From contig OX597830.1 in NCBI GenBank assembly GCA_951406725.2, positions 21,452,001 to 21,516,000 of the forward strand: a stretch of 64,000 nucleotides of DNA, given 5' to 3'. Each line of letters starts with the position of its first letter. Within the stretch, counting starts at the first letter, position 1. Shown here one piece after another: positions 2,817 to 56,392 of the stretch. Both the position numbers and the translations under genes were made by a program. Source of the stretch: Octopus vulgaris. Its lineage: Eukaryota. Under the pieces are notes generated by a model that worked only from the letters and a program-made list of their open reading frames with translations, did no database searches and was not told the origin of the DNA.

Positions 2817-3567
2817 AATTAATCAATATAGGGTGGCAAAAAAAATTTTGTAGAATTCTTTTGCCACCAGCGGCCTAGTAGGAAAAAATTAAAATAGTCA
2901 TAGACCATTTTTAAGTTCAACATCAACAATAAAGGAACGGCCATAATAGGCCATTCACCCACTAGAAATAACAGCCAAAGCTTCAACCGCAAATAAAAGT
3001 TAATTCAGTAAACCAGGAGAAAATTTAAAAAACATTTACCCTGTAATTTCTTATACGATATACCGTTTCATCTGCTGATTAATGGTAAACTAACCTGATT
3101 AAATTAAATCAAGCCAATTTTCCACAGGCCCTCAGATTCTTCAGTAAGAAATAGCCCAAGACGGAACAGATATTTTCACGAGGCATTTCCGACGTTGCCA
3201 AGTTTATATCTGACCTAAAATTTTCAAATCGTCGCATCGCGCCAAATTTATCGGCAGCAATATATAGCCGTCGATTCCATTACGGAATTAACCAGAAAAT
3301 TCATAATTTTGACGATTTGAAAATTTTAGGTCAGATATAAACTTGGCAAGTCGGAAATGCCTCGTGAAAATATCTGTTCCGTCTTGGGCTATTTCTTACT
3401 GAAGAATCTGACACGATTTAATTTATCAGGTTAGTTTACCATAATCAGCAGATGAAACGGTGTAGATATACAGGGTAAATGTTTTTAAATTTTCTCTGTT
3501 TACTGAATTAACTTTATTTGCGGTTGAGCTTTGGCTGTTAAGTGGGTATGGCCTATTATGGCCGTCG
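2815..3567. mobile_element. Retrozyme-like 492-bp-unit element, locus 1: one full unit on minus (2815-3308) plus an inverted, deleted partial copy on plus (3311-3567)
   Basis: Near-identical to the unit of the 41030-42820 array; both ends abut (TA)n-rich tracts. Confidence 0.85.
3046..3152 (-). ncRNA. Type I hammerhead ribozyme (CUGAAGA core, GUA cleavage triplet)
   Basis: AUUUCUUA-CUGAAGA-AUCUG...CAGAU-GAAA-CGGUAUAUCG-UA-UAAGAAAU: 8-bp stem I, 5-bp stem II base, near-palindromic stem III. Confidence 0.85.
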
Positions 3568-4100: not shown

Positions 4101-4153
4101 GTCCTTACCCTCGAAACACGGAGTAGATAAAGCAGGGACAACTGATGAAGGAG
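4101..4153 (+). ncRNA. 5'-truncated permuted hammerhead motif (family P)
   Basis: gtcc-tta-ccctc-GAAA-cacg-gagtaga...ggacaa-CTGATGA-aggag, followed by the T-rich family tail to ~4365. Confidence 0.55.
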
Positions 4154-4377
4154 AATATTTTTATGTTGCATGTCTCGTTTCTCTGTTTCTTTCGTTGTTC
4201 GAAAAAAGTTCATTTCTACGTTTTTGTTTTCATGTTTTCGTTTCTCATTGTGCTCAACGCTTTTTTAATGTCCTGTACCCATATATGCATGTATATATAC
4301 ATATATCTGTAGGTATGTACAAATATGTATGTATATATGCATATATTTATATATTATTTATATTACACACACACACG

Positions 4378-10553: not shown

Positions 10554-10766
10554 ACAAATTAATAAATAAAACATATGCATGTATACATACATATATGTAC
10601 GTACCTACATCTAGATATATATATATACATGCACATATGGGTACAGGACACCAAAAAAACGCTGAACACAATGAGAAAGGAAAACATAAACACAAAACCA
10701 AGGAAATGGACATTTTTCTTAAACAACGAAAAAACAGAGTACAAGACATACAACAGAAGGAAAATT

Positions 10767-10841
10767 CCCCTTCTTCAGCCGCCTCTGTTTCATCTACTCC
10801 GCGTTCGAAGGTAAAGGTGAGACGCGATTTCGTTGAAACAG
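10767..10841 (-). ncRNA. Permuted hammerhead motif (family P), one A missing from GAAA
   Basis: ctgtttca..CGCG-UC-ucaccu-uua-ccuuc-GAA-cgcg..ugaaacag-aggcgg-CUGAAGA-agggg; stem I sequence differs from other copies yet pairs at 5 of 6 positions. Confidence 0.65.
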
Positions 10842-10880
10842 TCCTTCCTGCAAAAGCAAGTTAAATAAAATTTGAGATTT

Positions 10881-34752: not shown

Positions 34753-34965
34753 TAACATAAATAATATATAAATATGTGCATATATACATACATATATGTA
34801 CATACCTACATCTATATGTATATATACATGCATATATGAGTACAGGACATAAAAAAACGTTGAACACAATGAGAAATGAAAACATAAAAACAAAAACATG
34901 GAAACGAACTTTTTTTCAAACAACGTAAAAAAACAGAGTACAAGACATACAACCCAAGGAATATT

Positions 34966-35040
34966 CCCCTTCTTCAGTTGTCCCTGTTTCATCTACTCCG
35001 CTTTTCGAAGGTAAGGACAAGACGCGATTCGTTGAAACAG
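34966..35040 (-). ncRNA. Permuted hammerhead motif (family P), GUC triplet
   Basis: cuguuuca..CGCG-UC-UUGUCC-uua-CCUUC-GAAA-AGCG..ugaaacag-GGACAA-CUGAAGA-AGGGG; one mismatch in stem III. Confidence 0.72.
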
Positions 35041-35238
35041 TCCTTCCCGCAAAGCAAATTAAACAAAATTTGGGATTTTTTGCGGAGGTGTAAAAGTGTT
35101 AACAAGAACAGGACAGTAAAAACAAAACAAGACAGTAAAAAAATACAAATAAAAACAGTAAAAGACAGGACAAGGAGAATAACACAGTTAAAACAAACGA
35201 TGAGGGCTGTTAAGTCAAGACAATGGAAAAAATTTTCC

Positions 35239-38388: not shown

Positions 38389-38620
38389 GGAGGGATAGAT
38401 AGACAGATAGATAAACTTACTTGGAAAGGGATACGTTGCGTACAATCATATAATAATATGAATAACACACACACACACACACACACACATATGCATGCAT
38501 ATATACATATATAGGTACAGGTCGTCACAAAACGTAAACAACATGAAATTCGAAGACAAACTTGGATATGCGAACAACGAGAGCAGCAAATGGAAAAGCA
38601 ACACAAGTAATATAAAGAAC

Positions 38621-38664
38621 GATCTTTGTCAGTTGTCGGCTGTTCATCTACTCCTCATTTCGAG
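38621..38664 (-). ncRNA. 5'-truncated, degenerate permuted hammerhead motif (family P)
   Basis: ctc-GAAA-tgag-gagtagat-gaacag-c-cgacaa-CTGACAA-agat; homologous to 47868-47909. Confidence 0.45.
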
Positions 38665-39295: not shown

Positions 39296-39744
39296 GATAT
39301 TAAATTAAAATGGTATACTTTACGGATCTTTACCTTTTGACCTAGCGATTTAAAAAATAATTTTTTGTAACTTTCAAACTTCGTATACTAGTAGACTGTG
39401 TCATATAAAACACCTTTTACTCTTAGCGTTTTCGAGAAAAGTTTATATTTATAAAGTTATTTCGTGTTGAAGTTGTCATATTTCGGTAATTTCAACCAAT
39501 CAATGACGTGTATTCAGCTGAATAAAATTACTGGTGTTGTTTGACAACAATAACTTCCGGCGGTAATCAACATACATATACATACATATATATGTATATA
39601 TACATGCATATATGGGTACAGGACGCCATAAAACGTAAACAACATGAAATACGAAATACGAAAACGTGAAATATGAAGACAAACTTTTGTATGCGAGCAA
39701 CGAAATAAATAAATGGAAAACAAGACAAGTAACATAAAGAACGA

Positions 39745-39819
39745 CCCTTCATCAGTTGTCAGCTGTTTATCTACTACATTTCAAGCAATTCACGCCAATA
39801 TGTGCCTTCGAGAAAACAG
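39745..39819 (-). ncRNA. Permuted hammerhead motif (family P), AUA triplet
   Basis: cuguuu..ACA-UA-UUGGCG-ugaauu-GCUU-GAAA-UGU..aaacag-c-UGACAA-CUGAUGA-AGGG. Confidence 0.65.
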
Positions 39820-40177
39820 TTGCTCCCGCGAACCAAAATAAAATTTGGGATTTGAAGAGGGTCAAAGTTGGTAACAAAAACAGGACATTGAAAACAAACA
39901 GTGAGAGCCGCTAGGCCATACGAAGTAAGGTGGCGAACGCTGGAGAAACAATCTTTGACAGGAGAAAAGATAGGAGAGGAGATAAACAAAAATGCGACTG
40001 GTCGGTGACACAGGCCGAAAGATAAGAAAGATGATCACGTGTGGAAAAAGAAAGGTGGACGACGATCACGTGTGAGCAACGAGAGAGTAAAGGCCGAAGA
40101 CGGAGTGAGTGTACCCATATATGCATGTATATATACATATATATGTAAGTATGTTCTTGTAGGTATGTATGTATAGA

Positions 40178-41151: not shown

Positions 41152-41258
41152 ATTTCTTATACGATATACCGTTTCATCTGCTGATTAATGGTAAACTAAC
41201 CTGATTAAATTAAATCAAGCCAATCTTCCACAGGCCCTCAGATTCGTCAGTAAGAAAT
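41152..41258 (-). ncRNA. Type I hammerhead ribozyme
   Basis: Reverse complement of 41997-42103. Confidence 0.88.
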
Positions 41259-41996
41259 AGCCCAAGTCGGAACAGATATTTTCACGAGGCATTTCCGACC
41301 TTGCCAAGTTTATATCTGACCTAAAATTTTCAAATCGTCGCACTCGCGCCAAATTTATCGGCAGCAAATAAATATAAGCCGTCGATTCCATTACGGAATT
41401 AACCAGAAAATTCATAATTAATCAATATAGGGTGGCAAAAAAATTTTGTAGAATTCTTTTGTCACCAGCGGCCTAGTAGGAAAAAATTAAATAGTCATAG
41501 ACCATTTTTAAGTTTAACATCAACAATCAAGGAACGCCCATAATAGGCCATTCACCCACTAGAAATAACAGCCAAAGCTTCAACCGCAAATAAAAGTTAA
41601 TTCTGTAAACCAGAAGAAAATTTAAAAAACATTTACCCTGTAATTTCTTATACGATATACCGTTTCATCTGCTGATTAATGGTAAACTAACCTGATTAAA
41701 TTGATTGTTGATGTTAAACTTAATTGATTGTTGATGTTAAACTTAAAAATGGTCTATGACTATTTAATTTTTTCCTACTAGGCCGCTGGTGGCAAAAGAA
41801 TTCTACAAAATTTTTTTTGCCACCCTATATTGATTAATTATGAATTTTCTGGTTAATTCCGTAATGGAATCGACGGCTTATATTTATTTGCTGCCGATAA
41901 ATTTGGCGCGAGTGCGACGATTTGAAAATTTTAGGTCAGATATAAACTTGGCAAGGTCGGAAATGCCTCGTGAAAATATCTGTTCCGACTTGGGCT

Positions 41997-42103
41997 ATTT
42001 CTTACTGACGAATCTGAGGGCCTGTGGAAGATTGGCTTGATTTAATTTAATCAGGTTAGTTTACCATTAATCAGCAGATGAAACGGTATATCGTATAAGA
42101 AAT
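41997..42103 (+). ncRNA. Type I hammerhead ribozyme (predicted cleavage after 42095)
   Basis: Stem I ATTTCTTA/TAAGAAAT, core CTGACGA 42005-42011, stem II ATCTG/CAGAT with long G-U-rich extension, GAAA 42080-42083, stem III CGGTATATCG, GUA triplet. Confidence 0.9.
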
Positions 42104-42488
42104 TACAGGGTAAATGTTTTTTAAATTTTCTCCTGGTTTACAGAATTAACTTTTATTTGCGGTTGAAGCTTTGGCTGTTATTTCTAGTGGGTGAATGGCC
42201 TATTATGGCCGTTCCTTGATTGTTGATGTTAAACTTAAAAATGGTCTATGACTATTTAATTTTTTCCTACTAGGCCGCTGGTGGCAAAAGAATTCTACAA
42301 AATTTTTTTTGCCACCCTATATTGATTAATTATGAATTTTCTGGTTAATTCCGTAATGGAATCGACGGCTTATATTTATTTGCTGCCGATAAATTTGGCG
42401 CGAGTGCGACGATTTGAAAATTTTAGGTCAGATATAAACTTGGCAAGGTCGGAAATGCCTCGTGAAAATATCTGTTCCGACTTGGGCT

Positions 42489-42595
42489 ATTTCTTACTGA
42501 CGAATCTGAGGGCCTGTGGAAGATTGGCTTGATTTAATTTAATCAGGTTAGTTTACCATTAATCAGCAGATGAAACGGTATATCGTATAAGAAAT
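42489..42595 (+). ncRNA. Type I hammerhead ribozyme (predicted cleavage after 42587)
   Basis: Identical to 41997-42103, 492 nt downstream. Confidence 0.9.
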
Positions 42596-47173: not shown

Positions 47174-47835
47174 GCACACCCACACACACACACACACACA
47201 CACGCATAGCTATTAACACTGTGTATATATGTGTGTGTCTGTGTGTATACACACACACACATATGCTTTATTCTTTTATTCTTTTACTTATTTCAGTCAT
47301 TTGACTGTGAGCATGCTGGGGCACCGCTTTAGTCGAACGAATAGGAGCCGGACTTATTCTATCTGTCTCAGGAGACAGGCAAAATGTGTGTTGTCTCTTG
47401 TAGCGTAAGCAGGAGAAAGAAAGATAGCCGCTGGTCACGTGTGAGCAACGAGTGAGTCAAGGAGGAAGAGTGGGGGAGAGGGAGAGGGAGAGATTGAGAA
47501 CGGTGAAGTTCTTTCTCCTCCTTACGCTAAAAGAGACAACAGACATTTTTGCCTGTCTCTTGTCAAAGCTTGTTCCTCCAGCATTCACCACTTCACCTCG
47601 CAATAACATCAGCTACTATGCACAGTGCGTAGAAGACTGCTCAGGTGGGATAATAAGCTGAGACTTACCCTGAAATAAGGTTTTGATACCGTGTTTAACA
47701 CGTATTTTCTTAACCACAATTCTTAAACCTTATACTTGACTTATTTATGTTCGCATGTTTATATATTTATATATATATATATATACATTAACCCTCCATA
47801 AATCCCAAATTTTATTTTGGTATTTATAGGACCAA

Positions 47836-47909
47836 TTGTCTTCGAAGACTCATATTGTTGTTGAATACCTGAAATGAGAAGTAGATAGACAGCCGACAAC
47901 TGATGAAGG
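47836..47909 (+). ncRNA. Permuted hammerhead motif (family P), most canonical copy; predicted cleavage after 47854
   Basis: UUGUCU..CUCA-UA-UUGUUG-uugaaua-CCU-GAAA-UGAG-aaguagau-AGACAG-c-CGACAA-CUGAUGA-AGG: stems III (4 bp + A-U), I (6 bp), II (3 bp) and extra helix all pair. Confidence 0.8.
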
Positions 47910-48020
47910 ATCGTTCTTTGTGTTACTCGTCCTGTTTTCCACTTTATTCTCATGTTGTTTTCGTACTTCATGTTGTTTACTGTTGGTGACGTTCTGTACT
48001 CATATATGCACATATATATA

Positions 48021-48241: not shown

Positions 48242-48479
48242 CACTGCTACTCGTATACATACATATATACATCTATGAGTATATGTATATAGTCTAGGCA
48301 AAAAAGGCCCTCTTTGGTTGTTTTCTTGTTTGTTTTTATTTCTTGTAGTATTTATATCTTGTACTTTATTTTGTAATTTTATTTGTATCATTTTTACGTC
48401 CTGTTTGTGTCACATTTTGTTCTTTCCTTGTTTTTACCCCTCTGCGAAGTAATGTTCTTTAATTTCTTCGCAGGAAGGG

Positions 48480-48554
48480 CTAGTTCGACGAGTCGTGTTC
48501 TGTCCTCACCTTCGAAACACGCTGGAGTTGAACTAGGGACAGCTGATGAAGGGG
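48480..48554 (+). ncRNA. Permuted hammerhead motif (family P), GUU triplet; predicted cleavage after 48499
   Basis: CUAGUUC..CGUG-UU-CUGUCC-uca-CCUUC-GAAA-CACG..GAACUAG-GGACAG-CUGAUGA-AGGGG. Confidence 0.78.
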
Positions 48555-49269
48555 ATTTTTCCTTGTGTAGTTTGTCTTGTACTCTGTTTTTCGTTGTAAA
48601 AAAAAGGTCCGTTCCATGCTTGTTTTCACGTTTTCGTTCTCGTTGAGTTCTGCGTCTATTTGTGGTGTCCTGTACTCACGTATATATATTTATATATGCA
48701 TGTATATATACATGTAGATGTAGGTACGTACATATATGTATGTATGTATGCATATATTTTATTTATTACACTATTGTATGACTGAGCGCCCTCGCATCGA
48801 TTCGATTCGTTTCTTCTTCTCCCAGTACAGTTTTTATATATAATTATGACACGAAACACTATACCTCTTTGCTTAACTTTCTCTTCTCTCCCTTTCCCGC
48901 TCTCTCACTTCTCCTCATCTCTCTCACAGCCGTTTGTCTTCCTCTATCTCTCTCTCTCCCTCACTCCTCCTCATCTCTCTCACTGCCGGCCAAAATACTT
49001 CCTTTTGCATGCGGCCTACTAACTGTAAACACACGGTTTTCTTGCGCTCCTTGAATCTCTCCTCGTCTAGGTAAAAAAGGCCCTCTTTGGTTGTTTTCTT
49101 GTTTGTTTTTATTTCTTGTATTCTATTTTTTTGTAATTGTATTTATATTTTGTACTTTATTTTGTAATTTTATTTGTATCATTTTGCGTCCTGTTTGTGT
49201 CACATTTTGTTCTTTCCTTGTTTTTACCCCTCTGCGAAGTAATGTTCTTTAATTTCTTCGCAGGAAGGG

Positions 49270-49344
49270 CTAGTTCGACGAGTCGTGTTCTGTCCTCACC
49301 TTCGAAACACGCTGGAGTTGAACTAGGGACAGCTGATGAAGGGG
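49270..49344 (+). ncRNA. Permuted hammerhead motif (family P), identical to 48480-48554
   Basis: Same sequence shifted by 790 nt. Confidence 0.78.
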
Positions 49345-49624
49345 ATTTTTCCTTGTGTAGTTTGTCTTGTACTCTGTTTTTCGTTGTAAAAAAAAGGTCC
49401 GTTCCATGCTTGTTTTCACGTTTTCGTTCTCGTTGAGTTCTGCGTCTATTTGTGGTGTCCTGTACTCACGTATATATATTTATATATGCATGTATATATA
49501 CATGTAGATGTAGGTACGTACATATTTGTATATATGTATGCATATATTTTATTTATTACACTATTGTATGACTGAGCGCCCTCGCGTCGATTCGATTCGT
49601 TTCTTCTTCTCCCAGTACAGTTTT

Positions 49625-49670
<46 letters not shown>

Positions 49671-55672: not shown

Positions 55673-56229
55673 ATATTGTGTTGGGTCAAAAGTTCTGCAA
55701 TATTTTGATAACTTATTTGCTTTATTCATCAGGTTAGAACGAAAGCAGCCTAGCATTCAAAGTAGAGGCCATCGTATTGCCCAGTCTGGAGCCACCTTTC
55801 TCTCAATTCTTTGATTTCACGTTGATACCGGTTCTTGTCCTTCGAGACGTAGAACTCTTTCACGGCAGCTTCCACCTCGTCTTGGTTGATGAAGCGTCGC
55901 GTGCACAGGAAGTGAGCCATAGATCGGAAGTAAATATAATCCGAGGGAGCTACGCCCGGACAATAAACTGAGTATGACATCAGTTCGATTCCTACGAGTT
56001 CGTGGAGTTTACTTCGGATCGTTCGAGCGATGCGAGGTCTTGCGCTGTCCTGCTGTAGAAGAGCTCGCTCTCTGTTAAGCGTGGAATTAAAGAAATGGCA
56101 GAAAGGTGCCTTCAGACGATGCAACACGATGGCCTCCACTTTGAATGCTAGGCTGCTAAGCAGCTTTTGTTGTGACTTGACAAATAAGTTACCACAATAT
56201 TTCAAAACTTTTGACTCAATACCATAATA
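55673..56229. mobile_element. Mariner-derived element bounded by two inverted 3' ends
   Basis: tattgtgttgggtcaaaagtt versus aacttttgactcaataccataata; transposase C-terminus present in both orientations. Confidence 0.75.
55750..56080 (-). pseudogene. Mariner (DD34D) transposase C-terminal remnant
   Basis: QDSARPR (HDNARPH), YCPGVAPSDY (YSPDLAPSDY), FRSMAHFL, GIxxLxxRW-like EIKELRERW, GLYFE. Confidence 0.92.
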
Positions 56230-56392
56230 TTTGTATTTGAACAGTTATATAATGTCTTTTACCTTCTCTCGTCTTTTTATAACTTATCCATTCCACTCCA
56301 TCATAACACAAATTGCAGGTGCGGAGATCACAAGAAAAAAAAATTGTTCGGGAGGTTATGTAGTTGGGACTTACATATATCCAAATGACTCA

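Follow-up and report, generated by a model that had tools for sequence, protein, structure and literature searches.

The window, a 64,000-nt stretch of microsatellite-rich animal DNA from a 2.8-Gb source assembly (G000 below), contains eight related copies of a dispersed repeat, at 4101, 47836, 48480 and 49270 on the forward strand and at 10767, 34966, 38621 and 39745 on the reverse strand. A preliminary description had reported all eight and had read them as hammerhead ribozymes in a non-circular (pseudoknotted) order, with the core blocks running [stem III'-UH-stem I], then [GAAA-stem III], then [stem I'-CUGANGA]. This block order is borne out by a descriptor search, and the word order and helices together support a hammerhead fold of this kind. 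The descriptor for the order S-G-C finds three matches in the window (47853, 48498 and 49288), none in the reversed window and none in 400 kb of other G000 DNA. Of 241 Rfam matches in the window (E up to 1), the 150 listed include no hammerhead model. Coordinates of the features are collected in Table 1.

Just two copies, 48480 and 49270, are fully intact, and these are completely identical across 111 nt. Those at 4101 and 38621 are 5'-truncated, as two copies had been said to be. At 34966 the mismatch falls in the first stem III pair, at 39745 stem I carries one, and the copy at 10767, with its shortened GAAA, has a stem I mismatch too. The copy at 47836, on which the preliminary description centred, has a broken leader stem II (a G-U, three mismatches and an A-U), and its closest genome relatives are just 82-90% identical; it is an old, decayed member of family A (families A-D and N are the consensus groups described below). 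The covariation claimed among the window copies holds in part: between families it is informative, but within a family the differences are mostly decay after insertion.

Table 1. Predicted ribozymes and carrier insertions in the window (positions in the 64,000-nt stretch)
Feature	Position	Strand	Basis
Decayed family A ribozyme (copy at 47836)	47830..47906	+	structure-anchored comparison
Same copy, leader, stem II broken	47830-47834	+	structure-anchored comparison
Same copy, P4	47836-47841/47887-47892	+	
Same copy, stem III	47849-47852/47875-47878	+	
Same copy, UA	47853-47854	+	
Same copy, stem I	47855-47860/47894-47899	+	
Same copy, GAAA	47871-47874	+	
Same copy, CUGAUGA	47900-47906	+	
5'-truncated family A insertion around this copy, TA-rich microsatellites on either side	47789..48003 (ends approximate)	+	
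Family B insertion: 5'-truncated plus full unit, partial tandem, period 790 nt, (TA)n end, no ORF	48290..49625 (ends approximate)	+	
Stem II 5' strand in leader, G10.1 first; partner 48509-48513	48474..48478	+	
P4 strand b, partner 48530-48536; helix tying stem II to stem I	48480..48486	+	
Block S: stem III strand 48494-48497, U16.1 48498, U17 48499, stem I strand 48500-48505	48494..48505	+	
Predicted cut, first intact family B ribozyme	48499/48500	+	fold
Block G: stem II 3' strand 48509-48513, GAAA 48514-48517, stem III strand 48518-48521	48509..48521	+	
P4 strand a 48530-48536, stem I strand 48537-48542, CUGAUGA 48543-48549; chain exits core past A9	48530..48549	+	
Second intact ribozyme, identical, 790 nt downstream; predicted cut 49289/49290	49264..49339	+	
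Family C copy, 5'-truncated immediately 3' of predicted cut site	4101..4286	+	
Family C copy, GAAA minus one A	10638..10872	-	
Family C copy, leader stem II intact, single stem III mismatch	34832..35174	-	
Family A copy, 5'-truncated, damaged core	38506..38661	-	
Family A/D-like copy, leader stem II retained, single stem I mismatch	39605..39868	-	

Two other features of the window can be mentioned here. A different repeat family, at 3060-3480 and 41166-42582 in inverted and direct arrangement, has GAAA and then CUGANGA words with crossing helices, and no stem I is visible in it. On the minus strand, a 164-aa frame at 55750-56244 resembles a fragment of a mariner-type transposase.

Copies were collected from G000 with three DNA queries (30 top loci each), 400 kb of evenly chosen DNA and one motif search. 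The 144 near-full-length matches (126 distinct) were retained, truncated ones were dropped, and five family consensus sequences, A, B, C, D and N, were made from them. Most genomic copies are decayed; among the distinct top-hit copies, the core and stems I-III are intact in 15 of 25 for family B, 8 of 33 for C, 5 of 35 for A, 1 of 3 for D and 9 of 30 for N. The five consensus sequences and 14 metagenome contigs, introduced below, make up 19 lineages. Pair counts over these lineages come from our own structure-anchored comparison, in which the leader site is the best match within a 42-nt range.

The hammerhead core words CUGANGA, GAAA and NUH are present, and stems I-III adjoin the core and covary. 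Stems I and III pair as the preliminary description had it. Stem II is formed with the 5' leader, where one strand lies 35-43 nt upstream of its partner before GAAA; the two match at 5/5 Watson-Crick pairs in families A-D and 6/6 in the Naiad family N, as GAGCA/UGCUC (A and D), GAAGG/CCUUC (B and C) and GACACC/GGUGUC (N). All 19 lineages have 5/5 Watson-Crick pairs in this helix, with 12 distinct 5-mers (the lineages are related, and B/C and A/D share their stem II). The G10.1-C11.1 pair is invariant (19/19), and pairs 2-5 each show two to four pair types. When leader partners are swapped between lineages, pairing is found in 16/342 combinations, the chance per lineage being 0.9-18%. The P4 strand begins one or two bases past the leader stem II strand. 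Read from 5' to 3', the proposed motif would consist of a stem II strand (G10.1 first), a P4 strand, a stem III strand-UH, the cut, a stem I strand, a short linker, a stem II strand-GAAA-stem III strand, the second P4 strand and a stem I strand-CUGANGA, at which the chain leaves the core.

The fourth helix, P4, had also been proposed before, and it stands: 18 of the 19 lineages have at least five Watson-Crick pairs there (range 5-9). It is the same helix as in type CSG, and its placement in three dimensions is inferred. The base at the cleavage site is A, U or C and never G in 19/19 lineages, as claimed, and the cleavage triplets are GUA (5), GUU (4), GUC (4), AUU (2), AUA (2), AUC (1) and CUC (1). 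N7 does vary, although not between U and A alone: the tally is U 15, G 2, C 1 and A 1. The cut that had been predicted past 48499 follows from the fold.

In this fold, A9 is joined to stem II neither directly nor via 1-2 bases. An inserted base at the A9/G10.1 link is reportedly the subject of a 2001 paper, to judge by its title. The bases following A9 and those preceding G10.1 are unconserved over the 19 lineages, and a fifth helix that would close the gap was looked for as pairing between tail and upstream sequence, which reaches p < 0.05 in just 2/19 lineages. The hammerhead metal site uses the A9 phosphate and N7 of G10.1, and a break 3' of A9 leaves both intact. The stem II strand of families B and C has a second possible partner, G8-A9-A-G-G, at -6.2 kcal/mol, versus -6.2 and -5.7 kcal/mol for the leader; this alternative would be inactive. 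Back-splicing that joins A9 to G10.1 was considered and rejected, with AG before G10.1 in 3/19 lineages and GU after A9 in 2/19. A pyrimidine tract ending in CAG does stand just before G10.1 in family B (window 48452-48473); it is splice-acceptor-like, and is not conserved in the A and C consensus sequences.

The preliminary description half remembered a precedent for a non-circular permutation, and one exists: type SGC (HRIMA-1 and an SGC variant), of which Eckert et al. (2023; PMC10085705) describe 583 sequences with four helices and demonstrated cleavage. According to the accessible text of that paper, all are metatranscriptomic and none lies in the genome of a known organism. The same text treats CUGANGA and its two flanking stems as one unbreakable block, every hammerhead considered there has the covalent link between A9 and stem II, and its SGC descriptors demand stem II directly past CUGAUGA(U)G. 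An extra base at the A9/G10.1 link is tolerated, as seen in those descriptors and in Penelope hammerhead tables. As far as the available sections of PMC10085705 go, the window RNA and type SGC have in common the linear S-G-C order of core words, the short linker from stem I to stem II, the cut site (by analogy), and a fourth-helix strand just before stem I' with its partner after the stem II strand. They differ in that type SGC has its stem II and interaction strands 3' of CUGAUGA, whereas here both lie in the 5' leader. Because the predicted stem II uses the leader, we do not class the window RNA as type SGC as defined.

The preliminary description had built stem II from the bases after CUGANGA, and a true type-SGC ribozyme would do so with one extra base past A9, the leader pairing then being alternative or inhibitory. 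The tails of families A-D can form 4 bp in register +1, the published SGC sequences seen in PMC10085705 have an additional U past A9, and one metagenome contig (L248), with 3 bp, is compatible with SGC as well. However, two Watson-Crick and two G-U pairs are the best that the consensus tails reach, and over the 19 lineages the first tail pair fails in 15 (register 0) or 13 (register +1), next to unconserved bases after A9. Duplex energies are -2.2 to -3.1 kcal/mol for the tail (positive in family N) versus -5.7 to -9.5 kcal/mol for the leader. We consider a true SGC ribozyme very unlikely. The earlier reading of stem II was probably misled by the copy at 47836, in which decay has broken the leader helix and a 3-bp pairing with the tail remains.

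In the part of PMC10085705 that is accessible, type CSG is represented by two tested soil-metagenome DNA sequences and cleaves with the same four helices; published rates for SGC and CSG are 0.004-0.19 per min. The run II - P4 - III-UH - I - linker - II'-GAAA-III is identical to that of the window RNA, and so is the cyclic order, but in CSG the segment P4-I'-CUGANGA stands ahead of stem II with a covalent bond to G10.1, whereas here it comes last and is unjoined. Type CSG has block C first and intact; the window RNA has its ring opened elsewhere. Because the stem II strand sits in the leader and the tail fails to provide one, the RNA is best read as the knotted CSG/SGC ring opened between A9 and G10.1, and we regard this open-core structure as highly probable. 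Searches of the literature outside subscription journals and Repbase yielded no account of a hammerhead whose chain opens between A9 and G10.1, nor of any structured hammerhead in Naiad elements, and the accessible text of PMC3088659, PMC12192606 and PMC13725137 contains neither.

The ribozyme lies in a repeat whose dispersal the preliminary description had recognized; its identity as a Penelope-like derivative and the link to Naiad elements were absent from that account. We call the carrier a non-coding, Penelope-like repeat of about 790 nt because its insertion pattern matches the hallmarks described in PMC8557442, which in the accessible text are fixed 3' ends, partial tandems, inverted 5' copies and a tail. 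In family B, the 3' ends of 27 of 28 loci fall at two fixed places, ~273 and 333 nt past the cut site, in (TA)n. The 5' ends vary, with 14/28 loci reaching or passing the unit junction, and in 7/28 the 5' junction carries an inverted copy, which in most cases differs by a ~60-nt tail. No family B locus extends into any coding sequence, and the unit encodes no protein. No ORF joined to families A-D was found.

The repeat is abundant. First-look candidates for the three queries number 2157, 3024 and 4137 (overlapping). The 400-kb sample contains 3 matches, one of them near complete, which corresponds to ~21,000 copies and fragments (95% range 4,000-61,000); the window is enriched in the repeat. 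As a probe for a surplus of 5' ends at the cut site, exact 19-mers were counted; they are found 536 times (3' of the site), 417 times (just after) and 216 times (just before), although each pattern picks different subfamilies. The top family B hits are 94-99% identical, and movement is therefore recent. Three truncated pieces, a small number, begin 2-8 nt past the cut site. Four contig runs show no pile-up of ends, which data of this kind could not reveal.

Non-LTR retrozymes, which the window unit resembles apart from its ribozyme, and Penelope pLTRs with type I hammerheads are compared here from the accessible parts of PMC4209133 and 10.64898/2026.07.22.740005. They too are non-coding tandem units (up to ~970 bp), and non-LTR retrozymes are likewise derived from Penelope-like terminal repeats, with one ribozyme per unit. 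However, they have been defined and searched for by type I hammerheads, which the window units lack, and such searches would miss the open-core fold.

Neptune-type elements were examined as a possible sequence parent and rejected, since their terminal repeats are dissimilar to the window unit and by eye have a type-I-like motif. G000 contains two Neptune-type families with intact ORFs (781 and 784 aa), and their (TA)n preference is common to the window unit. A search with Neptune ORFs placed one near 1/90 loci of the repeat, in opposite orientation. The Neptune-type ORFs at L121:1406-5087 and L205:1761-4112 have many near-identical copies; L121 also has a separate upstream ORF of 359 aa with no convincing Pfam match, and the type-I-like motifs in the terminal repeats of both have, by eye, a changed core. 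At L107 / L122:5650-7110, the 3' part of a Neptune-type ORF is joined to a tandem of the window unit that runs in the opposite direction, and the L107 junction looks like a nested or chimeric insertion.

Naiad elements are Penelope-like elements in which canonical hammerheads were reported absent (Craig et al. 2021; PMC8557442). In the same source, 'HHR_half_core' is flagged in the 3' UTR of 8 Naiad families, one of them from octopus, and the portions available give no half-core structure. According to those portions, Naiads have in common with the window repeat their (TA)n targets, partial tandems, inverted 5' copies and tail; they carry an ORF, whereas window families A-D do not. By eye, the fold described above ends seven of the Naiad consensuses seen in PMC8557442: Naiad_Obim, Ovul, Amil, Aacu, Anas, Plae and EuTe. 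The names were inferred from header order (32 header passages; 60/62 matches for one core spelling). Just Ovul among the seven belongs to the 8 half-core families, so that the fold is read in 1/8 flagged families. The motif from the octopus Naiad consensus has 329 exact matches in G000 and 0 in the control; these matches point to an octopus-type genome. Family N is tied to Naiad through this published consensus, and 0/30 of its loci are homologous beyond ~600 nt upstream. Among 150 scored endonuclease matches in G000 there is no intact Naiad, and in the 14 nearest ones the frame is short or broken.

A Naiad endonuclease remnant in G000 led to full-length relatives, and these in turn to 80 metagenome-contig loci (the best 80 of 195) that have an ORF with an N-terminal GIY-YIG, a CxC linker and a reverse transcriptase upstream of the repeat. 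No Naiad relatives were found in viral contigs. The descriptor used on these loci demanded only the S-G-C order and stems I and III, with stem II excluded. Of the best 80 loci, 14 have the open-core fold 3' of the ORF, all on the sense strand and 97-1790 nt past the ORF match; there are 0 matches on the antisense strand, 0 in 5 shuffles and 0 in reversed sequence. In 14/14 matches the leader pairs with the strand before GAAA, with 5-6 Watson-Crick pairs and G-C first, neither of which was required by the search. The strict motif is absent from 66/80 loci, and from 48 of the 61 having at least 300 nt after the ORF match; 40 of the 66 were tested against Rfam and gave no match at the gathering score. 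A probable open-core ribozyme with an imperfect stem III, below the strict descriptor, lies ~730 nt past the ORF match in L265.

These results bear on whether the pairings are simply a by-product of repeat ancestry or chance. The lineages are related, and nested folding of three window copies gives no significant z-score (pseudoknots are outside that model). However, compensatory changes are seen in four helices, in contigs that encode proteins just 27-73% identical to the query, the matches are biased in strand and position, and the controls are empty. An origin in ancestry or chance is hardly credible and is largely refuted already.

A descriptor for six permutations with intact blocks was also run on the 80 loci (counts without a shuffle control). 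Type-CSG hammerheads are found 3' of the ORF in 5 of these best 80 of 195, as four distinct motifs; beyond these there are one weak SGC (L248, 3 bp, likewise an open-core match) and one weak GCS. PMC10085705, in its accessible text, assigns no host element to CSG. The CSG-bearing loci are L238, L239, L241, L268 and L269, and by eye also L243, L258 and L259. A protein tree was made from the 68 loci with an ORF of at least 450 aa (12 were omitted, including one open-core locus). Loci with the open-core fold and loci with CSG are spread over several interleaved subclades, and the Naiad remnant of G000 is nearest an open-core contig. The interleaving fits one fold re-opened at different points, in any order of events.

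We propose that the RNA is a self-cleaving hammerhead of a new permutation that cuts as a single copy within a retrotransposition cycle, which its sequence features make likely, though well short of certain. The ribozyme would sit in a Penelope-like terminal repeat, in the window in non-coding derivatives and elsewhere 3' of Naiad ORFs. A transcript would span the tandem repeat, and each ribozyme would cut after H17 (48499 and 49289), freeing a 790-nt monomer. Stem II, P4 and stem III would bridge the upstream and downstream products, so that the monomer ends could refold and be ligated to a circle. A trans-acting Penelope-type reverse transcriptase/GIY-YIG protein would then copy the circle, or an uncut tandem, into (TA)n sites. 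Since the insertions cross the cut site and end 273-333 nt beyond it, a cut linear monomer cannot have been the template; only a circle or an uncut tandem can.

The fold may instead derive from a hammerhead yet cut negligibly or not at all, and be retained because the retroelement protein uses it as a signal for binding or priming. Weak cleavage in vitro is known for the minimal hammerheads that animal Penelope-like elements carry (PMC4209133, as far as accessible), 8/9 Xenopus retrozyme dimers failed to cleave (10.64898/2026.07.22.740005, likewise), and genomic copies span the cut site. Copying across the site is, however, also expected under the proposed cycle, because a ligated circle would serve as template. 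Moreover, C11.1 and G10.1, unlike CUGANGA, GAAA and UH, were not required by the search and yet are invariant in 19/19 lineages, and a cleaving type (CSG) fills the same slot in related elements. We judge a non-catalytic role unlikely. Cleavage might also occur only as a dimer or in trans, or with a protein holding A9 near G10.1, and would then be confined to tandem transcripts or a ribonucleoprotein. Dimeric activation is a described mode for animal Penelope-like hammerheads (PMC4209133, in the text available), the unit is found in partial tandems, and nothing closes the A9/G10.1 gap; however, a single copy spans 68-94 nt with all four helices included, and these are long enough, in contrast to the dimer-forcing stem III of 1-2 bp. 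Such a dependence is decidedly unlikely.

If the RNA does cleave as a single copy, the hammerhead, the most studied of the small ribozymes, would function despite a backbone break at a core position that had been taken as unbreakable, which would change how permutations are enumerated and searched for and would give a new entry point for ribozyme design. Non-circularly permuted hammerheads, hitherto from anonymous metatranscriptome and metagenome contigs, can now be placed in animal chromosomes with a host element. The fold may also answer the published puzzle of how Naiad elements thrive without a canonical hammerhead, and a 76-nt construct is on offer for probing the role of self-cleavage in Penelope-like retrotransposition. 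A wider set of proposals, on which we are evenly divided, is that the core is divisible into four freely ordered pieces; that Naiads are a main animal home of non-circular hammerheads (CSG and open-core); that the open core cuts efficiently without the A9-G10.1 link; that the three clamping helices drive circularisation of terminal repeats and explain the partial tandems; and that tens of thousands of copies are missed by standard descriptors.

The 3' ends of two other Naiad consensuses, Naiad-1_Movir and Naiad_Mley (as given in the accessible supplement of PMC8557442), look twister-like by eye. These ends suggest that one slot takes different self-cleaving ribozymes.
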